A stretch of 26,043 nt of DNA from Planctomycetota bacterium (lineage in GTDB: Bacteria > Planctomycetota > B15-G4 > JADJEK01). The stretch lies in the NCBI GenBank assembly GCA_044225365.1, contig JBGAIQ010000071.1, positions 1-26,043 on the forward strand, written 5' to 3'. Every line of letters starts with the position of its first letter. Position 1 is the first letter of the stretch. Under the pieces are notes generated by a model that worked only from the letters and a program-made list of their open reading frames with translations, was not told where the DNA came from and did no database searches. Positions 2,563 to 22,156 of the stretch are shown here, in pieces. Made by a program: the position numbers and the translations under genes.

Positions 2563-2666
2563 CGCGGGTGTCGTTGTACCGCCGACGGGGCGGCGATGCA
2601 CTCGTTATGCTGTTCCGACGATTGCGAACCCACGGTTCGAAGACTCGTCGCTCGAAAGGTCCACCG

Positions 2667-4556
2667 ATGCACGTTGCCACGAGACGGGCCGCAACCGCCC
2701 TGGCGCTGACTCTCTGTTTCACCTCCTGCTCCAGTCCCGTCGGCGTCGATCGCGCGGACGCGCGTGATGCGTACCGCCAGCTCACCGGCAACGCGCTCAC
2801 GACGGGCAAGCCGAGCACCTACAGCATCGACGTGCTTCGACGGTTCGCGCTCGACACGTCGTTCGAGGACGATCCCCACGGCGTGCTCGCGCAGCTCGCG
2901 GAGCGGGCGAAGAACGCCGTCGACCGCGACATCTGGTTCGCGCTCGCCGAGCTGTCGCACATTGCCGGCAACGAGTCGAAGGAAACGGCCCGCAACGACT
3001 ACTTCGCTTCGGTGCTCTACGCCTGGTGCTACCTCTTCGACCGTTCCCTCTCGGATCCGCCGAGCGAGTTCGATCCGCGCTTTCGCATCGCCTGTGACGT
3101 GTACAACCGGTCGCTCGCGCTCGCGCTCGACTCCGACGGCGACGGGGAGATCGAGCTGACGGGCGGCAAGATGCCCTGGCTGCGCGGAGAGGTCGATCTC
3201 ACTCTCGACGAGTCGCTCGTCACGTTCGACCCGACCGAGTATCACCACATGCTCCCGTCGTGGAACTATCGCATTCGCGGGCTCGCGAATCGCCATCGCA
3301 CCCCGGGGCTCGGTCTCTCGCTGATCGCGGCCCGCGATGATTCGAAGGTGGGATACGAACCTCAGGAATACCTCGAACATCCACCATGCGTCGTCGCGAC
3401 GTGCCTGCTCGTGATCGAGGGCGGCTCCGATGCCCTGAAGACGGGCAACGTGCGAGGAACGCTCCGCCTCGTCTCCCCGATCCGCGTGCCGCAGATCGAG
3501 GTCGACGGTCGCCGCATCGCGGTCGAGTGGGACTACAGCACCGTCCTCGCCTATGGCCTCCACGAGTCGAAGCTCTTCGATCTCGAGTTGCCATCGCTCC
3601 TCGGCAACTGGAACGAGAAGGACTACACGGGCCTGTATCAGGCGCAGCCCTACGAGAAGGGGAAGATCCCGGTGATCTTCATCCACGGGACGGCGTCGTC
3701 GGTCGCTCGCTGGGCCGACATGTTCAACGATCTCCTCGACGACCGTTTCGTGCGAGAGCACTACCAGTTCTGGTACTTCACGTATCTGTCGGGCAACACG
3801 ATCCCGGTATCCGCGAGCAACCTTCGCAAGGCGCTGCGCGAGGCTCGCGAACGACTCGATCCCAAACACGAAGATCCCGCGCTCGATCACATGGTGTTGA
3901 TCGGGCACAGCCAGGGCGGGTTGCTCGCCCGCCTCGCGGTCATCGACGACTCCAAGCAAGCATTGTGGGACTCCTTGTTCGCGAAACCATTCGATGCCCT
4001 GAAGGGAGATCCGGCGACGCTCGAGTTCGTCCACGACGCGTTCTTCCCCACACCGGTGCCGAGCGTGACGCGCGCGATCTACATCGCGACACCGCATCGC
4101 GGGAGCTACCTCGCCGACGACTGGATCGGGAAGATCATCCGCGAGCTCATCTCGGTGCCGGACAAAGTGCTGACGACCACGATCGACGTCGTCACGCTGA
4201 ATCGCGACATCCTGCGCTACGACACCGAGAGCGAGGTTCCGACGAGCATCAGCGGAATGTCGACGAAGGATCCATTCTTGCTCGCCCTCGCAGGCCTTCA
4301 TCCGCGAGAGGGCGTCCGGGAGAACGCGATCGTCGCACTCCGACCGGGAGCCTCGAAGGAGGAGGGAAGCGACGGCGTCGTCGAGTACAAGTCCGCCGCG
4401 CTCCCCGGTTGCGAGTCGCAGTGCGACGTCTCCGGCTACCACAGTTGCCAGAGTCATCCCCTCGTCATCAACGAAGTGCGGCGCATCCTGCGCGACCACG
4501 CGAATCAGGCGAACCTCGAGTCGCCGCCCCTGATCGTTCCGGTCAGCGGCAAGTGA
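2667..4556 (+). CDS. Lipoprotein alpha/beta-hydrolase (lipase/esterase-like)
   Basis: GAAAGG SD before ATG 2667; signal peptide with lipobox-like LCFTSC; PVIFIHG, nucleophile elbow GHSQGG, IATPHRGS, DGVV and C-terminal His (GYHSCQSHP). Confidence 0.85.
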   Translation: MHVATRRAATALALTLCFTSCSSPVGVDRADARDAYRQLTGNALTTGKPSTYSIDVLRRFALDTSFEDDPHGVLAQLAERAKNAVDRDIWFALAELSHIAGNESKETARNDYFASVLYAWCYLFDRSLSDPPSEFDPRFRIACDVYNRSLALALDSDGDGEIELTGGKMPWLRGEVDLTLDESLVTFDPTEYHHMLPSWNYRIRGLANRHRTPGLGLSLIAARDDSKVGYEPQEYLEHPPCVVATCLLVIEGGSDALKTGNVRGTLRLVSPIRVPQIEVDGRRIAVEWDYSTVLAYGLHESKLFDLELPSLLGNWNEKDYTGLYQAQPYEKGKIPVIFIHGTASSVARWADMFNDLLDDRFVREHYQFWYFTYLSGNTIPVSASNLRKALREARERLDPKHEDPALDHMVLIGHSQGGLLARLAVIDDSKQALWDSLFAKPFDALKGDPATLEFVHDAFFPTPVPSVTRAIYIATPHRGSYLADDWIGKIIRELISVPDKVLTTTIDVVTLNRDILRYDTESEVPTSISGMSTKDPFLLALAGLHPREGVRENAIVALRPGASKEEGSDGVVEYKSAALPGCESQCDVSGYHSCQSHPLVINEVRRILRDHANQANLESPPLIVPVSGK

Positions 4557-5382: not shown

Positions 5383-6366
5383 ATGCAGATCGCGCACGAA
5401 ACCATCCGTTCGAAGAACCTGTCGCTCGATGCCGTGAAGGGCCTGCTGGAGCGTCCCCTTCTCGACCTCGTGTTCGAAGCGGCGTCGATCCACCGCGCCC
5501 ACCACGATGCCTCACAGATCCAGTGCTCGCAGCTCCTGTCGATCAAGACCGGGGGCTGCCCCGAGGACTGCGGCTACTGTTCGCAGAGCGCCCACTACAA
5601 GACGCCCGTCGAACGCGAACCGCTGCTCGAGGTCGACGCGGTGCTGACGGCCGCGAAGCAAGCGAAAGCGAACGGCGCGGATCGATTCTGCATGGGCGCG
5701 GCGTGGCGCGAGGTGCGTGACGGGGCCGAGTTCGACCGCGTGCTCCAAATGGTCGAGGGAGTGAAATCCCTCGGCCTCGAATCGTGCGTGACGCTCGGCA
5801 TGCTCGATCCATCGCAGGCGGCGCGGCTGAAGGAAGCCGGGCTCGATTACTACAACCACAATCTCGATACGGGTCGCAGTCACTACGGCAACGTGGTCAC
5901 CACGCGTACGTACGACGATCGACTGCGCACCCTCTCGGCGGTGCGGGAATCGGGCATTCGCGTCTGCTGCGGAGGCATCCTCGGGCTCGGCGAGGACGCG
6001 CGCTCGCGGGCGGAATTCCTGTGGCAGCTCGCGACGCTCGATCCGCCGCCCGAGAGCGTGCCGATCAACGCGCTCGTTCACGTCGAGGGAACTCCCCTGT
6101 CGAACTCGACGAGCGTCGAGTGGACCGATCTCGTGCGCATGGTCGCTGCCGCGCGCATCCTCATGCCGACCTCGAAGGTGCGACTTTCCGCGGGTCGTAC
6201 GGGGCTCACCGAAGAGGCGCAGGCAATGTGCTTCCTCGCCGGAGCGAATTCGATCTTCATCGGGGACGAATTGCTCACGACTCCCAATCCGAATCCTCGG
6301 ACCGATGCTTCGCTGCTCGAGAAACTCGGACTGAGACCGTCCGCGTGCTCGGCGCACCGTGATTGA
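5383..6366 (+). CDS. bioB: Biotin synthase (radical SAM)
   Basis: [17 protein letters not shown] (CxxxCxxC), [46 protein letters not shown]. Confidence 0.98.
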
Positions 6367-8218
6367 CGACGACTCCCCTTCGAAGGGCGGGTTCCTCCGC
6401 GAACTCACTCGTGAGCTCGCGGCGCTCGAGGCGGCCGGACTGCGTCGCACGACGACGCACCTCCCGCGGCGAGCGGCGGACTTCGTCTCGAACGACTACC
6501 TCGGACTCGCGCGCCATCCTGCGGTCCTCGAGGCCGCTTCCAAGGCAATCGAGGAGTTCGGCGCCGGATGCGGCGCCGCACGTCTTCTTGGGGCTGGAGC
6601 GGAACTCCACGACGCCGTGGAGACGGCGATCGCGAACTGGCTCGGCGCGGAATCCGCGCTGTTCTTCCCGAGCGGATATCAAGCCAACCTCGGCGTCATC
6701 GCGGGCCTCTTCGGTCCTTCCGACGCGATCATCAGCGACGAGTTGAACCACGCGTCGATCATCGACGCGTGCCGATTGTCGCGCGCTCGGGTCGAGATCC
6801 ATCCCCACGCCGACCTGGCGGCGATCGCCCGGGCACTTCGCGCGACGCGAGGAGCTCGACGGCGTCTCGTCGTCACCGAATCGATCTTCTCGATGGAGGG
6901 CGATCTCGCGCCGCTCGAGGCGATCCATCGGCTCTGCCGCGAGCACGATGCGCTGTTGCTCGTCGACGAGGCGCACGCGGTCGGATTGCTCGGCGATGCC
7001 GGCGCCGGGGCTTGGCGTAGTGGGAAGCGCGACGAGGGCGCGCTGCTCGGTCGAATCGTGACGGGCGGCAAGGCGCTCGGCGTCGCGGGAGGTTTCTTCG
7101 TCGGAGAGAGGGTCGTTCGGGAGATGCTCCTGCATCGCGCGCGTTCGTTCGTCTTCACCACGGCGTCGCCACCCGCCGTACTCGGCGCATTGCGGCGGTC
7201 GATCGCGATTGCGGCAGAGATGACGGACGAGGCGAAGCGCGTCCTTCATCTCGCGAAGCAGGTCGCGCGGGCGCTTCAGGTGCGAGCCCGCGTGGATGCC
7301 GCGATCGTTCCCTTCGTCGTCGGCGACCCTCGACTCGCCCTCCGCGCCGCGGCCGAATGCGCGGCAGCGGGCCTCGACGTGCGCGCCGTGCGGCCGCCCA
7401 CGGTCCCGAGTGGCACCTCGCGGCTGCGCATCGCGATCCACGCGCACAATACGCAGGCCGAGGTGGAGCGGTTGGTCCGCGTGCTCGAGCCGTTCGTGCG
7501 CGGCGAGGGCGGCGCGCACATCGTGGGGTCGCCCGCTCCTCGCAGCGAGGCGATCTTCGTCGTGGGCACCGATACGGGCGTCGGCAAGACGATCGCGTCG
7601 AGCCTGCTCGTGCGCGCCTTGCGCCGCACCTCCCGCGTCGCATACTGGAAGCCCGTTCAAACGGGGGACGAGAGCGATACGGGGGTGGTGGCGAAGCTCG
7701 CGGGTCTTTCGGATGGTGAGCGAATCGAGCCGTTCCACCACTTCGCGCTGCCCGCCTCGCCACACACGGCGGCGGAAGCGGAGAGCGCCTCGATCGATCC
7801 GACCGCGGTCGATCTCGAGCTCGATCGACATCTTCGGTCGTCGCCCGATGGCACTCGCATCGTCGTGGAGTTCGCGGGCGGCCTGCTCGTTCCGTGGCGA
7901 CTCGGTTTCGATCAAGGGGATTGGCTCGGCGCGCGCCGGAGCGCGACCCTCCTCGTCGCGCGGTCGGGCCTCGGCACGCTGAATCACACCGGACTCACGC
8001 TCGAAGCGCTGCGTCGTCGCGCCATCGTTCCGCGCGCACTGCTCCTGGTGGGTGAGGCGCACGCTGCGAACTGCCGCACATTGAAGGCGCTCCATCCCGA
8101 CGTTCCGCTCTTCCACCTGCCCCTGTTCGACCCCTTGCGCGGCGAAGATCTCGAGCGCTGGCTCGACGCGAACGCCGAGTTCGGCGAACGATTCGCATCG
8201 CAGAGAGCGCAGCGATGA
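6359..8218 (+). CDS. bioF-bioD: Fused 8-amino-7-oxononanoate synthase (BioF) and dethiobiotin synthetase (BioD)
   Basis: N-terminal [51 protein letters not shown]; after ~7550 [36 protein letters not shown]; one uninterrupted frame. Confidence 0.93.
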
Positions 8219-9486
8219 GCGGCGATCTCGTTCGACGCGACAAAGGCAGCGTGTGGCACCCGCTCACGCAACACGGCCTCGAAGGCGATCCGCTACCCGT
8301 CGTGAGAGCGTTCGGGTCGAAGCTCGTCCTCGACGACGGTCGCGAACTGATCGATGCGATCGCTTCGTGGTGGTGCTGCCTGCATGGTCACGGTCGCGCA
8401 GAACTCGTCGAGGCGATCGCAAGACAGGCGAGGACGCTCGATCACGTCCTGCTCGCGGGCGCGACGCACGAACCCGCGGTGGCCCTCGCCGAGCGCCTCC
8501 TCGGCGTGGCGCCGCGCGGGCTGTCGCGGGTGTTCTACAGCGACGACGGATCGACCGCGATCGAGGTCGCATTGAAGATGGCGATCCAGCGCCATGCGCA
8601 GTGCGGCGAAGCGAACCGCCGCGTCTTCATCGCGTTCGACGGCGGATATCACGGCGACACCTTCGGAGCGATGGCCGTCTCCGACCCCGATCCGTACTTC
8701 GTCCCGTTCTCGCCCCTCTGCTTCGAGACGCGCCGCGTGCCGCTCGATGTCGCAGCGCTGGCGTCGGCTCTAGAGGAACTCGGCGACCGCGCCGCCGGAA
8801 TCGTGCTCGAGCCGCTCGTCCAGGGTGCGGCGGGGATGCGAATGCACGATGCTGGGTTCGTCGTGCGGGTCCGAGAGCTCGCGACCGCGCATCGCATCCC
8901 GTTCATCGCGGACGAAGTGATGACCGGATTCGGTCGAACCGGGTCGATCTTCGCCTGCGGTCGCGCTGGCGTGACGCCCGACCTCATGTGCGTTTCGAAG
9001 GGACTCACGGGCGGCATGCTGCCGCTCGCAGCGACCCTTGCCACGGAAGAGTTCTTCGCGGCATTCGTGGCGGAGGAGCGCCGGCGCGCGTTCTTCCACG
9101 GGCATACCTTCACCGGGAATCCGATCGCGTGCGCGGTCGCGTTGGCTTCGCTCGAGCTCGTTCTGAAAGACGATGTCCCGAAGCGACTCGACGCGATCGG
9201 ATCGACGATCGAGAGTGCGCTCGCTGGATTCGCGAAGAACGAGCCGCGCGTGAAGGAACTGCGGAGGTTGGGCGGCATCGTGGCGCTCGAGCTCCATCCC
9301 AGCGACGGCGCGCCGAGCTACTTCGACTCCCGCGCACTCGCGATGCGCAAGGCGGCGATCGAATGCGGCGTACTGCTGCGTCCCCTCGGAAACGTCATCT
9401 ATGCGTTGCCTCCCGCGTGCCTCGACGAAGACGAATGCGCGCGCGTGGCGTGGGCGATGCAGACTGTCGCCCGCGTCGATCCGTGA
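8215..9486 (+). CDS. bioA: Adenosylmethionine-8-amino-7-oxononanoate aminotransferase
   Basis: VWHPLTQ, SWWCCLHGH, DDGSTAIEVALK, YHGDTFGAM, DEVMTGFGRTG, SKGLTGG, HGHTFTGNP, LLRPLGN; ATGA overlap with bioFD. Confidence 0.97.
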   Translation: MSGDLVRRDKGSVWHPLTQHGLEGDPLPVVRAFGSKLVLDDGRELIDAIASWWCCLHGHGRAELVEAIARQARTLDHVLLAGATHEPAVALAERLLGVAPRGLSRVFYSDDGSTAIEVALKMAIQRHAQCGEANRRVFIAFDGGYHGDTFGAMAVSDPDPYFVPFSPLCFETRRVPLDVAALASALEELGDRAAGIVLEPLVQGAAGMRMHDAGFVVRVRELATAHRIPFIADEVMTGFGRTGSIFACGRAGVTPDLMCVSKGLTGGMLPLAATLATEEFFAAFVAEERRRAFFHGHTFTGNPIACAVALASLELVLKDDVPKRLDAIGSTIESALAGFAKNEPRVKELRRLGGIVALELHPSDGAPSYFDSRALAMRKAAIECGVLLRPLGNVIYALPPACLDEDECARVAWAMQTVARVDP

Positions 9487-10724: not shown

Positions 10725-10809
10725 GCTCCGAATCTCGCACAGCGGTCGATACCTTGACGCTCCATCGAACCGGAAAGAGTTCGAAGCGCCTAGCGTGGAG
10801 ATCGCGGGC

Positions 10810-13320
10810 ATGTCGGGAAGTAGTGAGCGTGAACGCGTAGCCGTGAAAGGCACTCGCAGGGTTCCCGCAACGAGCGGCGACGCTGCGGTGATGCGCTGCG
10901 AGCAGTCCATCGACGGTCGAGTCGTTGCGATCGACCCCGGACTGTGCGAACGCCTCGGCCGAAGCGAAGCCGATCTCGTCGGCAAGCTCGTCGTCGAGAT
11001 CGTTCACGAATCCGATCGCGGACTCCTCGAATCGCGCCGCCAGGATCTCCTGAGCGGCGCGATTCGCATTTCAGACTGTGAACTGCGTCTCTTGCGCGCT
11101 TCGGGCGAGTCGTTCCCGGCGCGACTCACCAGCATCGTCGACAGGGACTCGTCCGGTCGGCCGCCTCAGATCTTCACCCAGGTGATCGATCGATCGCTTC
11201 GCACGACCGAGGAGATGCAGTTGCGCCGCAACAACGCGCTGTTGCGAGCCGTGACGGTCGCGCAACGCGCCTTCATCGATCGCCCCGATCCGGCTTTGGT
11301 GTTCGATCTGTTGCTGAGATCGGCCATCGCGATCACGCAGAGCGCGTTCGGGTTCATCGGCGAGTTGCGGCGCGACGACAAGTCGAACGATTACCTGCAT
11401 TGCTATGCGATCAGCGATCTCGCCTGGGACGACATGACGCGCACGCTCTTCGCGGAGGTTCCTTATCGCGGAATCGACTTCCACGAGCTGAAGACGTTGT
11501 TCGGCGCCGTTCTGACGAGCGGCACGACCGTGATCAGCAACGACCCGAAGAACGACCCACGAGCCAAAGGCGTGCCCGCCGGACACCAAGCGCTTACCGC
11601 CTTCCTGGGCGTGCCTCTTCGCCATCAGGGCCAGATCGTCGGGATGCTCGCTCTCGCGAACCGTGACGGCGGATACCACGAATCGATTCGCGATGAGATC
11701 GAGCCGCTCCTCGTGACGTGCGCGAGCATCATCGAGGGACTGCGCAGCGAGGCGCGTCGCGGCGCGGCGGAGGCGGCCCTGCGCGACAGTGAGCAGCGAT
11801 TCCGCGGCTACTTCGAACTCCCCCTTGTGGGGATTGCAGTGACGGGTGTCGAAGGGAAGTGGCTCGAAGCGAACGACCGCGTCTGTCAGATCCTCGGCTA
11901 TCCGCGCGAGGAACTGCTCACGATGACGGTCGCACAGATCACGCACCCCGACGATCTCATCGGCTGTTTCGAGGTGGTCGCTCGCGCGGCACGCGGCGAG
12001 ATCGACGGCTTCACTTTCGAGAAGCGCTGGCTGCGGAAGGACGGCAGTATCGTTCACGCGACGATCTCGGGACGAGGCGTCTTCAACGCGAGCGGCTGTG
12101 CGGACTATTTCGTCGTGATGATCCAGGACACGAGCGAACTGCGAGCGGCGCGCGAGGAACGGGTGGCGATCGAACGCCGAATGCTCGAGACGCAAAGGCT
12201 CGAGAGCCTGGGCGCGCTCGCCGGCGGGATCGCGCACGACTTCAACAATCTCATGACGAGCGTGCTCGGTCATGCGGGACTCGCGCGTCTCGACGTGGCC
12301 GATCCGATCGTGTCCGACTCGCACCTTTCGAAGATCGAGGAAGCCGCGAATCGCGCCGCGGATCTCTGCCGGCAGATGCTCTCCTACGCGGGGAAGGGCC
12401 AGTTCGTTCTCGGACCAGTCGCCGTGGAACGCGTCGTGCGCGGTACCGTCGACCTGCTGCGCATCTCGGTTCGACGCAACGCGCGGGTGCGTCTCGAGAG
12501 CGAGCCCGGGCTGCCCACGATCATTGCGGACGAATCGCAGATTCGCCAGGTCGTGATGAATCTCGTGCTCAACGCCTCGGAGGCGCTGCCGGACACGGGC
12601 GGTGAGATCGTGATCGGCACGCGAGTCGAGACGGTGGCGGAGACCCGACTCGCCACGCGGCATCAATTCGGCGATCTCGTTCCCGGTCGGTACGTAGTGA
12701 TCGCGGTCGTCGATTCCGGCTGCGGGATGAGCGATGAGCAACTCACGCGCATCTACGAGCCGTTCTACTCGACGAAATTCACTGGCCGCGGCCTCGGGCT
12801 CTCGGTCGTACTCGGGGTCGTGAAAGCGCACGGTGGCGCGCTGCGAGTCGATTCCTCTCCGATGCTCGGCACTCGGTTCGAAGCCTACTTCCCGCTCGAT
12901 GCGACGATTCCGTTGGTCCACAGCGACGAATCGACCGACACGAACATTCTGCACGGTCATGGTTCCGTGCTCGTCATCGACGACGATCTCGTCGTCGCAA
13001 CGACGGTGGCGTCGATGCTGCGATGCTGCGGATTCGAATCGATCGTGATGACGAAGGCGAATGCTGCCATCGAGCGCTTCAAACTCGATCACGAGAAGAT
13101 CGATCTCGTGCTGCTCGACTTGACGATGCCCGAACTCTCCGGAGGCGAGACCTGTCGCCGCTTGCGCTCGATCGATTCGCGTGTGCCGATCGTGATCATG
13201 AGTGGCTTCACGAGCGACGATTCGCTGACCCGACTGTCCGACCTGGGAGCGACCGCGTTCCTTCAGAAGCCATTCTCGATCGGGGAATTGAGCCGGCGGA
13301 TGCGAGTGCTCTTCGCCTGA
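10810..13320 (+). CDS. Hybrid sensor histidine kinase PAS-GAF-PAS-HisKA-HATPase-REC
   Basis: PAS (IVHESDR; ITHPDD, EKRWLRKDG), GAF (FLGVPL..GMLALAN), H-box AGGIAHDFNNL, NLVLNA, DSGCGM, FYSTKFTGRGLGL, receiver VIDDD...LLDLTMP...FLQKPF. Start uncertain (10795-10891). Confidence 0.95.
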   Translation: MSGSSERERVAVKGTRRVPATSGDAAVMRCEQSIDGRVVAIDPGLCERLGRSEADLVGKLVVEIVHESDRGLLESRRQDLLSGAIRISDCELRLLRASGESFPARLTSIVDRDSSGRPPQIFTQVIDRSLRTTEEMQLRRNNALLRAVTVAQRAFIDRPDPALVFDLLLRSAIAITQSAFGFIGELRRDDKSNDYLHCYAISDLAWDDMTRTLFAEVPYRGIDFHELKTLFGAVLTSGTTVISNDPKNDPRAKGVPAGHQALTAFLGVPLRHQGQIVGMLALANRDGGYHESIRDEIEPLLVTCASIIEGLRSEARRGAAEAALRDSEQRFRGYFELPLVGIAVTGVEGKWLEANDRVCQILGYPREELLTMTVAQITHPDDLIGCFEVVARAARGEIDGFTFEKRWLRKDGSIVHATISGRGVFNASGCADYFVVMIQDTSELRAAREERVAIERRMLETQRLESLGALAGGIAHDFNNLMTSVLGHAGLARLDVADPIVSDSHLSKIEEAANRAADLCRQMLSYAGKGQFVLGPVAVERVVRGTVDLLRISVRRNARVRLESEPGLPTIIADESQIRQVVMNLVLNASEALPDTGGEIVIGTRVETVAETRLATRHQFGDLVPGRYVVIAVVDSGCGMSDEQLTRIYEPFYSTKFTGRGLGLSVVLGVVKAHGGALRVDSSPMLGTRFEAYFPLDATIPLVHSDESTDTNILHGHGSVLVIDDDLVVATTVASMLRCCGFESIVMTKANAAIERFKLDHEKIDLVLLDLTMPELSGGETCRRLRSIDSRVPIVIMSGFTSDDSLTRLSDLGATAFLQKPFSIGELSRRMRVLFA

Positions 13321-13333
13321 GGCGGTCTGCGTC

Positions 13334-14068
13334 TCACCGCTGGGAGCGGATCGAGCGCGCGGCTTCCAGGATCTCCGTCGGAGTCGCGCGATCACGCACG
13401 TCGATCGCGGCATGCTTCCAGCGCACGATCCCATCGTTCGAGACGAGGAACAGCGTGGCGTAGAAGATATCCGCGTGTTGCGGACTGCCCTGCGCGTGGC
13501 GCAGACCGAGCCGGTCCATGACCGTGCGACCGGAGTCGGACGCGAACAGGAAGGGCAGTTGGAACCGCTCGCACCCGCGCAGGAGATCGGCGGTGGAGTC
13601 TGCACTCACCGTGACGACTCGAACGCCGGCATCCGTGAGTTCCGCCTCACTCCTTCCGAGCCGGACCAGCTCGGCGACGCAGGAGACTCACCAGAAGCCG
13701 CGAAAGCAGAGGAGGAGCGTCAGCGGTGGGGCTCGCTCGTCGAGGAGGGCGATGCGTTCACCTCGCACGTCGACGAGCACGAGGTCGGCGAGACTCGCTC
13801 CGATCGGTGGTCCGAGCGGTCGGTCCTTCGCGTAGCGGGTGAAGTACTCGAGCGAACCGCTGAAGAACACGGCGCCCACGACTGCGAGGACCGCACTCGT
13901 TCGTGCGAGGCGCGAACCGCCGCGCTTCCATTGCAGGATCGCAAGGACGATGGAGAGCAGCAGCGCGACGTGCTGCGGGATCGAGTAGCGGTCGAGTACG
14001 CCGATCCGCATCACGTAGAGAGCGACGATCCCCGCGGTCGTGATGAGCAGTGCGAGGAATCCGAACAC
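13334..14068 (-). CDS. Membrane-anchored AhpC/TSA (peroxiredoxin-like) selenoprotein, Sec at UGA 13690-13688
   Basis: Track ORFs 13688..14116 and 13334..13609 are in the same frame; read-through gives LLLCFRGFW-U-VSCVAEL...VVTVSADS...FLFASD...ATLFLVSNDGIVRWKH, a complete thioredoxin-fold Prx-like domain; SECIS-like hairpin follows; GTG start at 14068 just after the dus stop. Confidence 0.87.
13650..13687 (-). promoter_or_regulatory. Putative bacterial SECIS element
   Basis: After UGA: GU-CUCCU-GCGUCG-CCGAGCUG-GUC-CGGCUCGG-A-AGGAG; 8-bp upper stem, apical loop starting with G at +22, lower CUCCU/AGGAG stem. Confidence 0.75.
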
Positions 14069-14072
14069 GTTC

Positions 14073-15269
14073 TCAGCCGCCTTCGAACGATGCCGAGGCT
14101 TCGTCCTGGCACGCAAGGGCGGGCAGCGTGTCGTCGCTCTCGAAGTCGCCGTCGAGGTAGCCGTAGGGCAATGCGACCTTCTGTGTTCCCGCGTGCTTCG
14201 CGCGCTTTGCGCGGATGGCGTCGGGCGGATACGGGATCGTGGGGTCGAGTTTCGAGAACAGCGCCTCGAGTTCCAAGAGGCGCGTGCAGCGATTCAATTG
14301 CGCTCGCAGCTCCGCGGTGTCGCGAAAGCCCTTCGTGTACCAGGCACCATGCCGGCGCATGTGCAGTACGCCGAGATGTTCTCCGAAGAAGCGCACGAGT
14401 TCTCGCGCATGCTCGAGAACGATCGCGGAGACTTCGCCGAGGCTCGGCGGGTCCTTTGGTTCTTCACCGCGGTAGACTGCATCGAGATCGCGGAACAGCC
14501 ACGGCCTGCCGAGGCAGCCCCGCCCGATGATGACGCCGTCGCATCCGGTCTGTCGCATCATGCGGAGAGCATCCCACGGTTCGTAGATGTCGCCGTTGCC
14601 GAGCACCGGAATCTTGACGTGGGCCTTCAACTCGCCGATCTTCGACCAGTCGGCTTCGCCGTCGTAGAGCTGCGCCGCAGTGCGCGCGTGGAGTCCCACC
14701 GCGGAGCAACCTTCCTGCTCGGCGATGCGGCCCGCGTTCTTGAAGGTGATCAGGGTGTCGTCGATTCCCGCGCGGAACTTGCACGTGACGGGCACCCTGC
14801 CCGAGGCCCGCACGACGGCGCCGACGAGCTGCGCCATGACCTTCGGTTTCACGGGGATCGCCGCGCCGCCGCCGTTTCCCGTCACCTTGCGGACTGGGCA
14901 ACCGAAGTTCATGTCGATGTGGTCGACGCGATCCTCGGCGACGAGTCGCGCCGCGGCCTCGCCGAGATAACGCGGATCGGTGCCGTACAACTGGATCGAG
15001 CGCGGCACTTCGTCGTCGGCGAAAGCGGCGAGGTGGTGCGTCTTCTTGTTGTTCTCCACGTAGCCGCGCGCCGTGATCATCTCGCTCACGTAGAGCCCGC
15101 CGCCGAATTCGCGACAGATCCTGCGGAACGGTGAGTTCGTGACACCCGCCATCGGCGCGAGGACCACCGGTGGATCGACGACGAGGTTCCCGATGCGCAG
15201 CGTTTGGAATTCGCCCGGACGCGCCGGTGCGACGTCCTGATTCAACGTGCTCTTGTAGACCGGGTCCAT
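14073..15269 (-). CDS. dusB: tRNA-dihydrouridine synthase (DusB-like)
   Basis: LAPMAGVT, SEMIT, QLYG, IDMNFGCPV, HART, GNGDI, GVIIGRGCLGRPWLF. Confidence 0.93.
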   Translation of the reverse strand: MDPVYKSTLNQDVAPARPGEFQTLRIGNLVVDPPVVLAPMAGVTNSPFRRICREFGGGLYVSEMITARGYVENNKKTHHLAAFADDEVPRSIQLYGTDPRYLGEAAARLVAEDRVDHIDMNFGCPVRKVTGNGGGAAIPVKPKVMAQLVGAVVRASGRVPVTCKFRAGIDDTLITFKNAGRIAEQEGCSAVGLHARTAAQLYDGEADWSKIGELKAHVKIPVLGNGDIYEPWDALRMMRQTGCDGVIIGRGCLGRPWLFRDLDAVYRGEEPKDPPSLGEVSAIVLEHARELVRFFGEHLGVLHMRRHGAWYTKGFRDTAELRAQLNRCTRLLELEALFSKLDPTIPYPPDAIRAKRAKHAGTQKVALPYGYLDGDFESDDTLPALACQDEASASFEGG

Positions 15270-15285: not shown

Positions 15286-15642
15286 TCAGGGTGAGTCTTC
15301 GCCGCGATACGTCACGTAGGACGTCGGGGTCTCGCCGAGCTGGATCTCGTGGATCTTGACGGGCAGCGCCGTCGCGAGTTCGTTCCAGATCCAGATCGCG
15401 AGGTTCTCGGCCGAAGGATTCGGAAGGAGATCGTTCAGGTAGGTGTGGTCGAGACGGCGGATGATCTTCTCGCGCACCACGTTCTTCAGGATGACGAAGT
15501 CGAGAGCCATCCCGTCCTTCTGCACCTTGTTCTCGATCGTGACGGTGAGCCGGAACGTATGGCCGTGGAGGTTCTCGCACTCGCCGTGGTAGTCGGTGAG
15601 CTGATGGGCGGAGTCGAAGGTGAAGACTTTCGAGACGAGCAT
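15286..15642 (-). CDS. queD: 6-carboxy-5,6,7,8-tetrahydropterin synthase
   Basis: FTFDSAH, CENLHGH (CxxxHGH, QueD-type), LDHTYLND, NPSAENLA, ETP. Confidence 0.92.
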   Translation of the reverse strand: MLVSKVFTFDSAHQLTDYHGECENLHGHTFRLTVTIENKVQKDGMALDFVILKNVVREKIIRRLDHTYLNDLLPNPSAENLAIWIWNELATALPVKIHEIQLGETPTSYVTYRGEDSP

Positions 15643-15652
15643 GGGCCTGTGA

Positions 15653-16228
15653 TTAGAACACGCGGCCCTTCTCCGAGGAAAGCAGCGTCATCACCTCGTT
15701 TCGCGCGGCGCCGTTCACGTGGAACACCCCGCGAAGGGCCGAAGTGATCATCGTCGAGCCTGGTTTACGGACTCCGCGTGCCGTCATGCACGTGTGTCCG
15801 GCCTCGATGACGACCGCAACTCCCGACGGTTTCACCTTCTCCATCACCAGATCGGCGATCTGGCTGGTGAGCCTTTCCTGGACCTGGGGCCGGCGAGCAA
15901 AGCCCTCGACGACGCGCGCGATCTTCGACAGCCCGACGATCCGTCCGTTCGGGATGTAGGCGACATGCGCCTTGCCCGTGAACGGCATCAGGTGGTGCTC
16001 ACAATACGAGTCGAACGGGATGTCCTTCACGAGCACCAGTTCGTGGTGATCCTCGTCGAACATCTTGTTCAGGTGATGGGCGGGATCTTCGTGCAGACCG
16101 CTGAAGACCTCCTTGTACATCCTCGCGACTCTCGCCGGCGTGTCCCGCAGTCCATCGCGGTCCGGATTCTCTCCGATCGCGATCAGGATCTCCTTCACTG
16201 CGCGGGCGATTCGTTCGGTATCCACCAC
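15653..16228 (-). CDS. folE: GTP cyclohydrolase I
   Basis: [44 protein letters not shown]; GGAG SD 6 nt before GTG 16228. Confidence 0.97.
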
Positions 16229-16321
16229 TCTTGACTCCAATCGACTCTGCCGTCCATCCTGCGCCGCGCCGGCAAGGCGATGCGGACGCCTCCTCCAAGA
16301 TAGCCTGACCTCCTGCAATGC

Positions 16322-16363
16322 CGACGCCGATCTCGCGGCGTATCTGCCGGGAGATCGGCGTCG
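16322..16363 (-). terminator. Long GC hairpin downstream of the M56 gene
   Basis: Perfect 13-bp inverted repeat CGACGCCGATCTC/GAGATCGGCGTCG with an inner CGGC/GCCG stem, ~20 bp past the stop at 16383. Confidence 0.55.
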
Positions 16364-16382
16364 CTTTCGCACCCTCGAACGG

Positions 16383-18824
16383 TCAGGACTTCGAGTTCAC
16401 GACGGGCAGGATCGAAGCATCGACATCGTTCGCATTGGGGAACGCGCCGTCCTTCGAGTTGCTCGGGAGGTAGGGCCCCATCTTGTTGGGGTTCTCGGTG
16501 GGCGCGAGCGTGGTGATGCCCGCGAGCGACTCCACGATCCGCATCCGGACGACTTCGTTGTCGATCTTGCTCAAGAGTTGAATGAACGCTCGCTTCACAT
16601 CGGGCTCGCGAACGAAGCGCGAGAGCGCATCGACGAGAGTGCGCTGGATGACGACGGACACTCCGCCATCGAGGCCCTGGATGACCACGCGCCGCACCTT
16701 CGGGTCGGCGACGTCTTCCGCGAGCTTCTCCGCGACATGCAGGCGGGCGACGGGATTGTCGTCGCGGACCAGCATCTCGACGAAGACGGATTGGATCTCG
16801 GTGCTGCCAGCGACTTCGGATGCGAGGGCGTCGATGATCGCCATCCGCGCCACTTCGTTGCGACTGCTGCGCAGGACCTTCGTCATCGCGTTCTGCACGG
16901 CTTGATCCGTCGCCTGGCTCGTGAGTGCGCGCGCTGCGTTGATCTGCATCGATTCATTGGTGTCGTTGAGAAGGGCGTCGACGAGAGCGTCGCGCGCGTC
17001 GGGCTCGTTCGCGTAGGGCGCGAGCGCTTCGGTCATCGTGATGCGGTTGAACTCGTCATTGTCCATCGCGAACAGGCGTACGAAGAGTTCGCGGGCATCA
17101 TCGGAAAGCGTCTCGCGCTTCAGCAGTTCATCGAGGACGGTCACCTTGAGCTGTTGGCTGCGACTGTTCTGCAGCGCGTTCATGAACGCGTCCTTCACCT
17201 CGCGTTCGCGGATGAACGGCGCGAGCGCGCTCGCCGCCGTGGCGCGGGTCGTGATGTGCTGATCGTTGAGGAGCGTCTGGATCAGGGCGCGCTTCACGTC
17301 GGGATCCATCGGCAGCGGCTCACCGCCGCCGTTCATGCCCCCGTTCATCAGGGAACCGCCGCTCGACACGAGCTGCGCTCGCGCGCCGTTGTCTGCGCCA
17401 CGCTTGCTCGCGAGCAGCTCCTGCAGGCGCTTGCTGCGTTCTTCGGGCGAGAGCGGCGATTGCAGCACGTCGCTCTTCTTCTTGTTCGGGGTCGGCTTGT
17501 TCGCGTCGCGCGGCGGCTTTTGCAGGTCCGAAGGCTTCCTCGCATCGCACGCATTCGGATCTTGCGGGGGCAACACGATCGGCGCGGTCTGTTTCGGCGG
17601 GCAGTAAGCGACCATCGACTCGCTCTCGCCGCCAAAGGCGGGGAGAGCCGTGGCGACGAACACGTGCGCGACGCAGAGCGCGGCGATCGCCGAGCCACCC
17701 GCGACGGCGAAGCGCAGGCGCTTCGCGGAGCGATTCTTCGACATTCCCTGACGCATGGACGTGAGCATTTCGATCCTCCTTCGGAGCAACGAACGACGGC
17801 GTTTCCAATGGATCCAAGAAACCCAATGCAGCAAAGCGGTGGTATTGGTCGCGGCTCCCCGTCGACTCTGCGTCGACAAGGGGTCGGACGAGTGTTCTGC
17901 GGCGTAGTCGAGCAAGGCGCGCGCGTAGCTCCGGCGGCGGCCCGTTCGCTCGGCGACTTGTTGATCGCACGCGAGTTCGCGCGCGTCGGACAAGGCGCGA
18001 ACGAGCCACCAGGCGACCGGATGGAACCAGAACATCGTGATCAACAAGCGCTCAGCGATCTGGATCAGCGGATCGCGCTGCTCGAGGTGGATCATCTCGT
18101 GCAGCAGCGCGAGATGCGTGCGGGAGGCGAGTGCGGCGTCGTCCAGGTCGGCGATCGGAATCACGATCACCGGGTTCCACACGCCGGCGCAGCACGGCGC
18201 GTCGATCTCGGTCGAGACGCGCACGCGATATCGCTTGAGATGGGAGTGCTCCGCAGCGGCGGCGATCGCGTTGCGCAGGGCCTCGGAATCCGATGCTCGA
18301 GTGCGAGCGAGGAACGCCCGAGTGCGGACGACCCGTCGCAGTTGGATCCCGATGAAGATGAGGAGTCCGACGAGGTGCGCGAGCGCTGCGAGCACGACGA
18401 GTCGCGAATCGAGCTCGAACCCCGTCGCGGTCGAATCGGGCGCGCTCTTCGTCGCGAGGCTCGGACCTCGCGCGATCACGGAGGGAGGATCCGCCACGAC
18501 GGGCGCGGGCACGGCCGGGATCTCGGCGATCGCCGGTCTCGCTCCTCCCGAGTTCCGCCGCGGGGCGTCGCGGAGAAGGACGAGATTCGACGCGAATGCC
18601 CTCTGCCCTTGCGAGATCGGAGCTCTCAGGAGGCGCGTTGCGGTGAGGACTTGAAGGGGGAGCAGTGCGAGGCAGGAGAGCAGCGCGAGTCGTGCGGTCC
18701 GGTGCACCGCGACCGCATCATCGCGCACGCACCGCATGACGATCGCCGCGATCGCGGCGACGAGGAAGATCGCGATCGAAGCGAGCGCGACGTGAGCCGT
18801 CAATCCGACGAGGATCGAGCTCAT
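16383..18824 (-). CDS. BlaR1/MecR1-like M56 metallopeptidase with C-terminal HEAT-like repeats
   Basis: N-terminal TM helices, [19 protein letters not shown] (18087-18101), [25 protein letters not shown], one further TM, then eight 33-34 aa helical repeats. Confidence 0.92.
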
Positions 18825-18827
18825 CGA

Positions 18828-19268
18828 TCACCTCTTCGTCTCGGGCTTCTTGGGATCGGGATCCTCTTCGTCGTCGAGTTGGTTCTCGATCATCGAGCGC
18901 AGCTTCAGGAGATCGTCGCGCGAGAGCTTGTCATCGCCGACGAGGTGGACGAGCAGCGGTTCGACTTCGCCATCGAAGAGCCGATCGACGAGATCGCCGA
19001 TCATCGACTTCGAGGCCTGCTCGCGCGACACGCGCGGTGAGAAGAGATGCGCCCGCCCCGGTCCGGGCTCGGAGAGGACGACGCGCTTGTCCTCGAGGAT
19101 CTTGAGGACGGTCTGCACCGTCGTGTAGGCGAGTGGACGCGAGCGCGTCGCGTTCACGCGCTCCACCACATCGCGCGCGGTGAGAGCGAGCGGCGCGGAG
19201 TCCCAAACTGCCCGCATCACTTCGAGCTCGAGCTTCGTGAGCAGGATCGATTTGCCGTGACTGGTCAT
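18828..19268 (-). CDS. BlaI/MecI/CopY family transcriptional repressor
   Basis: LTKLELEVMRAVW, LAYTTVQTVLKILEDK, GRAHLFSP, LVDRLFDG; 3 bp upstream of the M56 gene; start at ATG 19268. Confidence 0.94.
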   Translation of the reverse strand: MTSHGKSILLTKLELEVMRAVWDSAPLALTARDVVERVNATRSRPLAYTTVQTVLKILEDKRVVLSEPGPGRAHLFSPRVSREQASKSMIGDLVDRLFDGEVEPLLVHLVGDDKLSRDDLLKLRSMIENQLDDEEDPDPKKPETKR

Positions 19269-19346
19269 CGCATGCCACCTCGATCGAATCGGGTCGCCGT
19301 TGGGAGCGGGGGCGCCCGGGGCGAATTTCGTGAGTCGCGACCGCGG

Positions 19347-19390
19347 GACTCCTAAAACCTTAGGATCCGACTCCGAAAGATTTAGGAGTC
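19347..19390. promoter_or_regulatory. Tandem 22-bp palindromic operator, probably bound by the BlaI-type repressor
   Basis: GACTCCTAAAACCTTAGGATCC (19347-19368) directly followed by GACTCCGAAAGATTTAGGAGTC (19369-19390); consensus GACTCCTAAAnnTTTAGGAGTC; 78 bp upstream of the blaI-like start. Confidence 0.75.
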
Positions 19391-19703
19391 TGCGGGACGA
19401 ATGCAACGAGACACTTTGGAAAAAACCGTTTACGACGACGAACGGGCCGCATTGGAGGAATTCACGAACTCCAGCTTCCGGACCGCGGGGGGAGCGGCGC
19501 CGCGGGTGGGGCCTTTCGGGATCGCGGCGTTGTGCTACGATCGATGCTCGGCGAGCGCTCGTCCCATGCCCGACATGGCGCTGCGCCATCGATCCGTTCG
19601 GCGACGGGTCGCGACGAATGGCCTCACCCAGCCCTTCGACCGGACCGCGTGGTCCCGAGAAACCGAAGGGAACCCCCGTGGCGATACCGAAAGGGAGGTA
19701 GAC

Positions 19704-19943
19704 GTGTTTCCTACCGCGCTGCGACTCGAAGGGGATGGAATCCGTCGCGAGAAGCTCGAGACGGCAGAGGCCCTAGCGGCTTCCGACCTGCGCCGGCGAG
19801 CGGGTACGACCGTGCATTCGCGAGAGAACGCGAGCGACGGTCCATCCACCGCAAGCCCCTCGAACGAGTTCGACCGCACCGACCGCTACGCCCTCGCGCA
19901 GCCGCTCTTCCATCTCGACGAACTGACGACCGTTCGCTCCTGA
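19704..19943 (+). CDS. Possible small hypothetical protein (79 aa)
   Basis: Strong AAGGGAGG SD 5 nt before GTG; open to TGA 19943; no recognisable motif. Confidence 0.4.
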   Translation: MFPTALRLEGDGIRREKLETAEALAASDLRRRAGTTVHSRENASDGPSTASPSNEFDRTDRYALAQPLFHLDELTTVRS

Positions 19944-19993
19944 AGCGATCGCCGATCGATCGATCTTCGGCGCGCCCTCCTATCATGCCGCGC

Positions 19994-22156
19994 ATGCGAA
20001 GCACTCTGCGCGGTCACGACTCCTCGCGTCTCTCGGTTCCTCGCCATTCCTCGCCGTCCTCGTCGTTCGGGCGACGCGGCACACGTCTCCTCGCGGCCTT
20101 GCCGTTCTTGCTCGCTGTCGGATGTTCGCTGTTCTCGCCTCAACAGGAGATCCCGAAGGGTCGCGAGGCGTGGGTCGATTCGCTCCTCCTCGCCGAGGAC
20201 CGCCGCGATGCGAACGATCCGCTCTTCGCCCTCGCGCTCGAGAACGACGATCCCGTGGTCCGCATGTTCGCGTATCGCGGCCTCGGGCGAATCGGGGATC
20301 CCGCGCAGATCGGGCTCATCCTGAAGTCCGCGCGGCGTGAGACCGCGCCCGAGCTGCGCGCCGAAGCGATCCTCGCGATGGGGGGCACGGAGAACGCGCG
20401 GATCCTCGACGCGGTCGAGCCGTTCGCGCTCGATCCTTCGATCGCCGCGCGCCGCGCCGTTGCCCGAGCCGTGGGTCGCGCGAAGAGCGATCAATCGCTC
20501 CATCTGCTGTTCGGCCTGATGTCCGATGCGGATCCCGACGTGCGCGCGGAAGCGGCGTTGGGCATCGCGCGGCGACTCGCGGCCGACAAGAGCCTGTTGA
20601 CGGAGCGGTCCGTTCCGGCGTTTCGCAGTCTGTCGAAGAGTGCGATGGAGGACGGCAACGCCAAGGTTCGCGCGGCCGTCACGTTCGCGCTCGGCAAGAC
20701 GGAGATGCCGGAGTTCTCGCAGGTGTTCATCAACGCGCTCGGCGATTCCGATGCGCTCGTTCGGTGCTACGCCGCCGTCGCGTTCCAGACCTTGCCCGTC
20801 CTCGATACCGATGAAGCCGCGCGCGCCGCGCTCATCACGGCGACGAAGGATGCCGAATTCACGGTCGTGGTGGAGGCCTTGAAGGCCCTCGAGCACGTGA
20901 AGGATCCGGCCGTCGCCACGGCGTTGATGGGACTCGTCCGTTCGGACGCTGCGCCCGGAGCGGAGTCGTTCCACGTCCGCGCGGCGGCAACGAAGGCGCT
21001 GGGCAAGCAATTGGCGACCCCGGCCCTCGTCGCCGCGAGCGAGGCCGGACTGCTCGATCCCTCGCCGAGCGTGCGCGTGGAAGCCCTCGATGCGATCGTC
21101 GCACTCGGTACGCCCGAGCAAGCGCGCGCCGCCTGCGATGCGTTTGCTTCGAACAAGAGCGACGATGCCGCGCTGTTCCTGCGATCGCGCGCGGCCGCCG
21201 CGGCTGCGAACCTGCCGAACGAGGCGGGCTTCCCCATCGTCCAGCGCCTGTTCGCCGACGAGTCTCCCGCGGTTCGCGCCGCCGCGATCGAGACGTTGCC
21301 GCGCTTCAAGGGGCACGCTTCGGACGCGGCCGCGATGCTGAAGAAGGCGCTCGCGGAGCAGGACGTCGCGCCGCGTGAGAGCGCCGCGACCGCCGTCGCC
21401 GCGCTTCGCCTCGACTCGCTCGCGCCCGATCTCGTCGCCGCGCTCGAGACCTCTCCCGGTCCCGACTTCATCGAGGCGCGATTGTCGATCCTTCGCGCGC
21501 TCGGCAGCTTCGACAAGCTCGGCCTCGCGACTGCCATCAAGAAGTCGCTCGACGACGACGAGATCGAAGTGCGCCGCGTCGCCGCGGAACAACTCGCGAA
21601 ACTCGGCAGCCTGCTCGAGAAGGCGTCGCCCCGATTGCCGCCGCCTCGCGTCGTCGTGCCCAAGGCCGGGCGCGACTTCCTGAACGCCGCTCCGCGCACC
21701 CAGCTCGAACTCGTCACCACCAAGGGCTCGTTCAAGATCGAGCTCTTCGTCGAAGACGCTCCGGTCCACGCCGCGGCGTTTTCCGAGCGCGCGCTGCACG
21801 GTTTCTACGACGGACTCACGATCCATCGCCTCGTGCCCGGCTTCGTCGTCCAGGGCCTCGATCCGCGCGGCGACGGCTACGGCAGCGGCGGCGCCTCGCT
21901 GCGTGCGGAGAACAACGACTGGCGGTACGATCGAGGCGTCATCGGAATGCCCGATGCGGGACGCGATACCGGCGGCTGCCAGTTCTTCGTCACCTTCCGA
22001 CCGCAGCCGCGGCTCGACGATCGCTACACGATCTTCGCGCGGGTGATCGAAGGCATGGAGACCGTGGAGCGCCTCGACGTCGGAGATCGCATCCTCTACG
22101 TCCTCGCCGCCGCGCCCGCCGCGGCGCAGGATTCGCAACCGAAGAGTCAGGAATAG
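19994..22156 (+). CDS. Lipoprotein with HEAT repeats and C-terminal cyclophilin-type peptidyl-prolyl isomerase
   Basis: Lipobox LLAVGC; repeated D.DP.VR..A..ALG units; FYDGLTIHRLVPGFVVQG.DPRGDG.G, DTGGCQFF, LDDRYTIFARVIEGM. Start 19985 or 19994. Confidence 0.92.
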   Translation: MRSTLRGHDSSRLSVPRHSSPSSSFGRRGTRLLAALPFLLAVGCSLFSPQQEIPKGREAWVDSLLLAEDRRDANDPLFALALENDDPVVRMFAYRGLGRIGDPAQIGLILKSARRETAPELRAEAILAMGGTENARILDAVEPFALDPSIAARRAVARAVGRAKSDQSLHLLFGLMSDADPDVRAEAALGIARRLAADKSLLTERSVPAFRSLSKSAMEDGNAKVRAAVTFALGKTEMPEFSQVFINALGDSDALVRCYAAVAFQTLPVLDTDEAARAALITATKDAEFTVVVEALKALEHVKDPAVATALMGLVRSDAAPGAESFHVRAAATKALGKQLATPALVAASEAGLLDPSPSVRVEALDAIVALGTPEQARAACDAFASNKSDDAALFLRSRAAAAAANLPNEAGFPIVQRLFADESPAVRAAAIETLPRFKGHASDAAAMLKKALAEQDVAPRESAATAVAALRLDSLAPDLVAALETSPGPDFIEARLSILRALGSFDKLGLATAIKKSLDDDEIEVRRVAAEQLAKLGSLLEKASPRLPPPRVVVPKAGRDFLNAAPRTQLELVTTKGSFKIELFVEDAPVHAAAFSERALHGFYDGLTIHRLVPGFVVQGLDPRGDGYGSGGASLRAENNDWRYDRGVIGMPDAGRDTGGCQFFVTFRPQPRLDDRYTIFARVIEGMETVERLDVGDRILYVLAAAPAAAQDSQPKSQE

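Follow-up and report, generated by a model that had tools for sequence, protein, structure and literature searches.

A membrane-anchored peroxiredoxin-like protein, very probably a selenoprotein, encoded across an in-frame UGA in a planctomycete genome

The locus and its reading frame

The stretch of DNA that was analysed, referred to as the window, comprises 26,043 nucleotides of a Planctomycetota bacterium (GenBank assembly GCA_044225365.1, contig JBGAIQ010000071.1, positions 1 to 26,043). On its minus strand, positions 13334-14068 hold a single reading frame of 244 codons, whose only in-frame stop ahead of the terminal codon is a TGA at 13690-13688 (codon 127). The listing of open reading frames (ORFs) cuts this frame into two pieces, 13688..14116 and 13334..13609, which share the same frame, and the 26 codons leading from the TGA to the GTG of the second ORF contain no stop. 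The original prediction, made from the sequence alone, had proposed that two ORFs parted only by this TGA form one selenoprotein of 244 residues that gene callers had split; re-translation confirmed the arrangement with its stop-free bridge, and the length agrees with the 244-codon frame. Translated from the minus strand, the motif around the TGA reads LLLCFRGFW-U-VSC-VAELVRL, where U denotes selenocysteine (Sec). The elements of the gene are as follows:

13334..14068, minus strand: complete predicted selenoprotein gene, GTG start at 14068-14066, 244 codons, terminal TGA at 13336-13334; the catalytic domain spans the internal TGA
13688..13690, minus strand: UGA codon 127, read as Sec (the U of UxxC) from column conservation and the Sec machinery of the genome
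13679..13681, minus strand: TGC codon 130, the putative resolving or partner Cys of UxxC, invariant in the alignments and aligned with the peroxidatic Cys of the A. pernix BCP 2cx3
13337..13801, minus strand: AhpC/TSA (thioredoxin-fold) catalytic domain, residues 90-244, from Pfam, PDB profile matches and Foldseek

Both Pfam matches run across the TGA: AhpC-TSA (PF00578) covers residues 90-217 with an E-value of 2.8e-13 (50.3 bits against a cut-off of 26), and Redoxin covers residues 117-224 (1.7e-11). Since the AhpC-TSA match straddles the TGA, the two ORF pieces belong to one domain. The Ser codon two positions past the TGA varies synonymously in six family sequences (TCC, TCA, TCG and TCT), so that the bridging stretch is translated sequence. 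TGA is also the ordinary stop of the selenoprotein gene itself and of the adjoining dus gene, and therefore the genetic code is standard and not reassigned. In all six Phycisphaeraceae orthologues (6/6), the start codon lies 126-128 codons ahead of the Sec codon.

Conservation of the TGA column

A six-frame search was made over 60 relatives, including 11 other genomes of the same family. Full-length orthologues were found in five of these 11, all of them Phycisphaeraceae metagenome-assembled genomes (MAGs) with 35-40% identity, and all five carry TGA at the identical place within the motif FRGFW-U-[PTV]SCV[AK]ELVRL. The phylum was surveyed in 401 Planctomycetota genomes with a profile built from nine Sec forms and 13 Cys homologues; the counts refer to the best 150 rows, beyond which lie 693 weaker matches, and a match was taken as full-length when it starts at or before model position 31 and ends at or after position 232. 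Among the matches listed, 69 are full-length, 64 of them with an in-frame TGA and five without (G267, G310, G150, G127:C51 and G130). Inspection of 30 loci by column placed the TGA at the first residue of XxxC in 28/28 TGA loci, the other two having TGC, and among 13 aligned full-length database homologues the Sec column holds Cys in 12 and Trp in one. At the first residue of XxxC (U127-V-S-C130), an in-frame UGA thus pairs with Cys of homologues in the same column, as had been predicted for the motif FRGFW-U-VSC-VAEL from the position of the TGA and proposed as a check by comparison of Cys/UGA pairs.

Database records carry the imprint of the same codon. In a representative library of 1.84 billion proteins, the top two matches are the gene's own two halves; N-terminal fragments end at ...RGFW in all five that were fetched, C-terminal fragments start at residues 128-130 in four of four, and the homologous clusters are cut exactly at U, which bears out the proposed mis-splitting. 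A search for homologous proteins of similar length found none, because the relatives are stored as halves. A search with a six-sequence alignment returned, from genome contigs, only the same five orthologues and, from metagenome contigs, one partial match of 20 residues. Since every TGA-bearing orthologue examined has the codon in this one column (28/28), its position is not due to chance, and TGA-127 almost certainly encodes Sec.

Several further observations concern this column. The Trp in the alignment belongs to P0052, a low-GC full-length homologue (YRGNW-W-PYC), which may be another hidden Sec form whose TGA was translated as Trp under code 4. Within one genus (g202), the genome G252 has a Sec form and selA, and G310 has a Cys form (TGC, no hairpin of the kind described below), with selA not found at 91% completeness; this pair possibly represents a recent Sec-to-Cys switch accompanying loss of the Sec trait. 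Many AhpC/TSA matches in Planctomycetota that are shorter and confined to the domain likewise contain one in-frame TGA, sometimes several per genome (e.g. G348, G217 and G043), and three loci (L032, L034 and L036) are of a soluble type with the motif F[FY]RG.W-U-P[YD]C. Planctomycetota seem to be rich in Prx-like (peroxiredoxin-like) selenoproteins beyond the membrane-anchored family.

A SECIS-like hairpin downstream of the UGA

Shortly after the UGA, the coding sequence can form a hairpin resembling a Sec insertion sequence (SECIS), which falls within the codons for AELVRLG:

13656..13674, minus strand: SECIS-like hairpin CCGAGCUG-guc-CGGCUCGG, +17 to +35 from the U of UGA, with an 8-bp stem and the loop GUC

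A bacterial SECIS is worded in the Sargasso Sea selenoprotein survey as a stem-loop just 3' of the UGA, with a small apical loop containing G (PMC1088965), and the 8-bp stem with its GUC loop agrees with that wording. When a hairpin was defined as a perfect stem of at least 6 bp with a loop centred at +22 to +34, one was present in 28/28 Sec forms, with a G in every loop, compared with 231/1290 windows of equal width taken from other parts of these genes (18%) and 3/22 Cys- and Thr-form controls. The controls without a hairpin comprise soluble CxxC homologues (0/15), the two Cys forms of the same locus set (0/2), L095 and the true TxxC peroxiredoxin L091.

The stems are highly diverse in sequence, their registers are centred approximately 3-4 nt apart, and the loops are mostly GGUC or GUC. 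In the three main registers, 90, 93 and 84% of cells are paired vs 24-50% with a slid partner, percentages that are biased upward by the definition of each register from the sequence's own hairpin and that come from related sequences. Compensatory changes occur in all three registers (6, 4 and 8 cells altered on both sides), for example C18-G34 in the gene described here vs G18-C34 in orthologues, and the covariation score was matched by 1, 6 and 0 of 500 shuffles, respectively. An Rfam scan gave no match to a SECIS model and only two chance-level, unrelated hits. The 5' arm of the hairpin coincides with the codons for Glu-Leu in the conserved xEL motif, and therefore peptide and RNA structure are coupled.

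Selenocysteine machinery and read support

The host genome (6.53 Mb in 103 contigs, 94% complete) contains selA, selB, selD and tRNA-Sec, all above curated cut-offs, as would be expected of a Sec-decoding organism according to the original prediction. tRNA-Sec, with anticodon UCA (tca), was called by both Rfam and ARAGORN. The selA gene adjoins selD (G000:C90:85984-88375), and selD has one in-frame TGA, SelD probably being a selenoprotein itself. In other genomes tested, selA is present in 5/5 with a Sec form and in 4/5 with a Cys form.

Run X1, probably from the source sample, gave an identical contig at a depth of 16, and contigs of runs X4 and X5 cover only 13787-14167, which ends short of the TGA; none of the runs listed is an RNA run. 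A sequencing error is excluded because the orthologues carry the TGA, not because of the reads.

Fold and active site

An AlphaFold2 model computed from a 22-row alignment (predicted local distance difference test, pLDDT, 89.3; predicted template-modelling score, pTM, 0.85) consists of three helices followed by a thioredoxin-like alpha/beta domain, in which U127 directly precedes the helix 128-139. The highest-ranking profile matches in the PDB were the BCP of A. pernix (2cx3, 7e-31), a Bcp of Sulfolobus, AhpE of M. tuberculosis and ResA (1e-18), and the best Foldseek match is S. solfataricus Bcp4 (3hjp; TM-score 0.86 normalised to the target). Across 30 family members, R123, G124, W126, U/C127, C130, L134, L137 and D178 are invariant.

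In the alignment to 2cx3, FFPAAFSPVC stands opposite FfRGfWCpfC. The Pro position of the peroxiredoxin (Prx) motif PxxxTxxC is taken by the invariant R123 and the Thr/Ser position by U127, so that the Pro and Thr of the motif are both lacking, and C130, invariant in the family, aligns with the Cys of SPVC, that is, with the peroxidatic Cys. The Arg of KRAVFIV in 2cx3, which we take to be the catalytic Arg of Prx, is aligned with A204. The Prx signature is described as a tetrad of Pro, Thr, Cys and Arg (PMC3322552). Because the Pro and Thr are replaced and, of this tetrad, apparently only the Cys (C130) is kept, the protein is not a canonical Prx; it is a thioredoxin-like UxxC protein of the 'Prx-like' type on a Prx scaffold. 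The label 'peroxiredoxin-like' of the original prediction therefore stands as far as the AhpC/TSA fold with UxxC is concerned, and is to be refined by the replacement of Pro and Thr.

In an NCBIfam scan of the 30 family members, no curated model reached its cut-off. The best match for all 30 is NF040769 (SelL-related redox protein), for which the protein described here scores 46.8 vs 120 bits and the best E-value in the family is 2.6e-22; this model is 173 positions long and therefore does not include the membrane anchor. The ResA model NF002854 is matched by 28/30 members, the protein described here scoring 35.4 bits, far below the cut-off of 170.

Membrane anchor and topology

The N-terminal region contains three predicted transmembrane (TM) helices, in agreement with the about three that had been proposed:

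14003..14065, minus strand: TM helix 1, residues 2-22, from AlphaFold2 (pLDDT 62-67 here); hydrophobic, with a length conserved in orthologues
13925..13981, minus strand: TM helix 2, residues 30-48, from AlphaFold2; followed by the most positively charged loop
13838..13912, minus strand: TM helix 3, residues 53-77, from AlphaFold2

In a set of 30 sequences, the mean net charge of the N-terminus (+1.23) and of loop 2 (+2.53) exceeds that of loop 1 (+0.70) and of the segment after TM3 (+0.47). By the positive-inside rule, this distribution places the N-terminus inside and the catalytic domain outside, so that the domain probably faces the periplasm. A DsbD_TM protein is encoded elsewhere in the host genome. 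A match of DUF423 to the TM region (E 0.0015, below cut-off) was dismissed as due to hydrophobic composition.

The original prediction did not recognise this architecture as characterised. Literature searches on membrane-anchored Prx-like CXXC proteins and on planctomycete selenoproteins found no description of it, but the architecture is not rare: many database proteins combine 2-4 TM helices with [FY]RGxWCxxC under generic names such as 'peroxiredoxin', and a natural Cys homologue matched only generic AhpC/TSA clusters in the protein atlas. With these two refinements, concerning the non-canonical Prx and the abundance of the architecture, the prediction is supported.

Proposed mechanism and alternative readings

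The gene in all likelihood encodes a real Sec-containing, membrane-anchored Prx-like redox protein of the UxxC type, which could function in the following manner: UGA-127 would be decoded as Sec by SelB and tRNA-Sec, directed by the hairpin 17-35 nt downstream. The three N-terminal TM helices would anchor the thioredoxin-fold AhpC/TSA domain, with the active site U127-V-S-C130 placed at the N-terminus of the first helix of the domain. The selenolate of Sec127 may then attack a substrate in its oxidised state, either a disulfide or sulfenate or possibly a peroxide, and Cys130 may resolve the adduct under formation of an intramolecular Se-S bond. An external thiol reductant would recycle the enzyme, the ultimate source of electrons probably being a transporter of the DsbD/CcdA type.

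Several points weigh against this reading. Sec insertion at UGA-127 is itself inferred. Independent read support for the TGA is weak: a contig of run X6 passes over the site at a depth of 2.1 with 10 differences, nine of which lie elsewhere and the tenth of which is unlisted. As to the hairpin, the full-length Cys forms L077-L079 each show some hairpin, with loops of 5-7 nt, and the pairing percentages have the upward bias mentioned above. The minimum free energy does not mark the SECIS region (among the lowest 5% of in-gene windows in 2/28 Sec forms, mean z -0.86), and the folding z-score of the gene described here is only -2.3; folding energy is uninformative because these genes are GC-rich. 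The topology is read from one line of evidence, the positive-inside rule, and the post-TM3 segment of the protein itself carries +3/-2. Among 30 loci, no neighbour is conserved across the phylum, and the genomic context therefore gives no clue to the substrate or the reductant.

That the UGA is a real stop, ending a membrane protein of 126 residues (whether or not a C-terminal fragment is made separately) or marking a pseudogene, is very improbable. Gene callers do annotate two pieces (P0002 and P0003), but the thioredoxin fold would be severed through its active site, the 26 codons after the UGA are conserved as protein with synonymous variation, and a nonsense mutation is not expected at one column in 28 loci of many families, each with a hairpin after it. 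An error in sequencing or assembly (the codon really being TGC or TGT), or a reassignment of UGA to another amino acid, has still less to commend it and may be regarded as a marginal explanation; although the genome is a MAG and P0052 shows a W at the column, as if code 4 had been used, the probable source run yields an identical contig at depth 16, TGA is found in independent genomes and terminates both the gene and dus, and tRNA-Sec and selABD are present.

Two other readings leave the selenoprotein as such untouched and concern its chemistry and its orientation. We lean slightly towards reduction of disulfides or sulfenates over peroxidase chemistry. A true peroxidase, in which H2O2 or lipid hydroperoxides would convert Sec127 into a selenenic acid, by analogy with glutathione peroxidase (GPx), for resolution by Cys130, the enzyme acting as a hydroperoxide reductase at the membrane surface, is the less likely alternative, if a possible one. 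In GPx, too, the Sec is placed at the N-terminal end of the first thioredoxin-fold helix, which counts in favour of this alternative, as does the fact that the nearest solved relatives by sequence and fold are the BCP/PrxQ peroxiredoxins (2cx3 and 3hjp). The near-fixation of Sec (64/69 of the full-length matches listed), expected if fast peroxide chemistry matters, leaves room for a peroxide substrate, and peroxiredoxins of the envelope exist, for example PprX as described in PMC3322552. In contrast, the Pro and Thr of Prx are replaced by R123 and U127 and A204 is aligned with the Prx Arg, ResA-type oxidoreductases match nearly as well (1e-18; 28/30 members), and the two-Cys Prx-like protein PrxL is reported to have no detectable peroxidase activity (PMC3322552), which argues for disulfide or sulfenate reduction in the Cys forms. 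A somewhat doubtful variant turns the topology around, with the catalytic domain in the cytoplasm and recycling by thioredoxin. It is consistent with the three positive charges in the post-TM3 segment of the protein, with neither a signal peptidase site nor a DsbD gene nearby, and with a pyridine-nucleotide disulfide oxidoreductase gene directly upstream in one order-level group (L052 and L055); yet the 30-sequence mean charge of the N-terminus and loop 2 is clearly above that of loop 1 and the post-TM3 segment, and ResA, TlpA and similar CxxC proteins, whose thioredoxin fold is tethered to the membrane, are typically found outside the cytoplasm.

Relation to known proteins

Prx-like selenoproteins with UXXC have been recorded before, with 22 sequences in the Sargasso Sea survey (PMC1088965) and, under 'Prx-like 1, pfam00578, UxxC', with 225 sequences and 2,740 Cys homologues in Table 2 of the Global Ocean Sampling (GOS) survey (PMC2398784). 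Two reviews, of 2022 (PMC9312934) and 2026 (PMC13188914), include among the predicted selenoproteins a 'Prx-like thiol:disulfide oxidoreductase' (PF00578, UxxC/UxxU), which the later one grades as 'predicted with high confidence'; according to the earlier one, it is not clear what most selenoproteins predicted in this way do. Table S9 of a planctomycete genome paper from 2016 has split 'peroxiredoxin' and 'AhpC/TSA' selenoprotein candidates, which may include an orthologue (PMC4807772). Domain and motif are common to the protein described here and this class (example WP_010940744.1), of which it is a member by that classification, whereas the three-helix anchor is a feature of the former, the distinction being drawn from class descriptions and not from the sequence of WP_010940744.1; the main texts of PMC1088965, PMC2398784, PMC9312934 and PMC13188914 do not use the word 'transmembrane' at all (0 occurrences). 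The gene is an unannotated new addition to a known selenoprotein class, and no description was found of a membrane-anchored subfamily spread across Planctomycetota. What is new is that the protein is membrane-anchored, that its orientation is probably periplasmic and that the family extends over the phylum.

Among characterised proteins, Caulobacter crescentus PrxL (cd02969) is described as a periplasmic substrate of ScsB that is kept reduced and has no detectable peroxidase activity (PMC3322552). By that description, it is a Prx-like protein of the cell envelope that has two Cys, lacks the other conserved Prx residues and is reduced by a transporter of the DsbD family, and in these features it resembles the present protein as predicted here; in contrast, PrxL as described has Cys instead of Sec and is exported by a signal sequence instead of being anchored by three helices. 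ResA, TlpA and CcmG share the thioredoxin fold, the nucleophile-x-x-Cys motif, the membrane tether and an outside-facing domain (the last as predicted here), but have one TM helix instead of three, and no cytochrome c maturation genes lie near the locus. BCP/PrxQ proteins (2cx3 and 3hjp) are the best solved relatives, with a peroxidatic Cys that aligns with C130, but they are soluble and have PxxxTxxC, where the present protein has R123 and U127 in place of Pro and Thr, with A204 aligned to the Arg.

Significance

The gene is annotated as two hypothetical fragments, and the same mis-split affects at least 63 of the 401 Planctomycetota genomes, so that their selenoproteomes are understated. Although no new class of chemistry is opened, an enzyme of the UxxC type that is tethered to the membrane, probably faces the periplasm and has kept Sec in >90% of the listed full-length members suggests a Se-dependent step in the redox homeostasis of the envelope, in a phylum with unusual envelopes. 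Several members, for example those of G210, G049, G202 and G167, are found in single-contig or few-contig genomes and may come from cultured strains. The 28 natural SECIS variants, with three or four registers over one conserved peptide, provide a data set for the rules of SelB-SECIS recognition. The broadest interpretation is a speculative one and decidedly unlikely: an undescribed family of three-helix-anchored, periplasm-facing selenoenzymes across Planctomycetota would define a Se-dependent envelope redox pathway, for example as a GPx4-like lipid hydroperoxide reductase or a DsbD-fed reductase, and would not be another soluble Prx-like paralogue. In that case, the SECIS hairpin would in addition shape the stretch of peptide behind the active site (ELxGLG / ELVRL) whose codons form it.

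Gene neighbourhood and other features of the window

Upstream of the selenoprotein gene lies dus, the last of three genes that precede it in series:

14073..15269, minus strand: dus (tRNA dihydrouridine synthase), from Pfam; ends 4 nt ahead of the selenoprotein start

The series consists of folE (15653-16372), queD (15286-15642), dus and the selenoprotein gene, separated by gaps of 10, 16 and 4 nt, and co-transcription of the selenoprotein gene with dus, queD and folE is probable. On its other side, the selenoprotein gene is convergent with a hybrid histidine kinase gene (10795-13320). The dus gene is upstream in 6/6 Phycisphaeraceae loci and not elsewhere in the phylum. A scan for promoters and terminators gave nothing useful.

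Other neighbours recur locally. In L052 and L055 (G020 and G017, order-level relatives), a gene for a dihydrolipoamide-dehydrogenase-like pyridine-nucleotide disulfide oxidoreductase ends just upstream, and a cupin gene neighbours the Sec-form gene in four loci. The sole envelope-redox neighbour among the 30 loci is a VKOR-DsbA fusion gene (2298-3614, plus strand) directly downstream in L065 (G248:C33).

Elsewhere in the window, a biotin synthesis cluster occupies 5383-9486 on the plus strand, with a bioB-like radical SAM/BATS gene (5383-6366), an apparent BioF-BioD fusion (aminotransferase I/II and AAA_26; 6359-8218) and a class-III, bioA-like aminotransferase gene (8215-9486). The minus strand encodes an M56 peptidase of the BlaR1 type with HEAT repeats at its C-terminus (16383-18824), preceded by a repressor of the Penicillinase_R/BlaI type (18828-19589), and a large protein combining HEAT repeats with a cyclophilin is encoded on the plus strand at 19532-22156.

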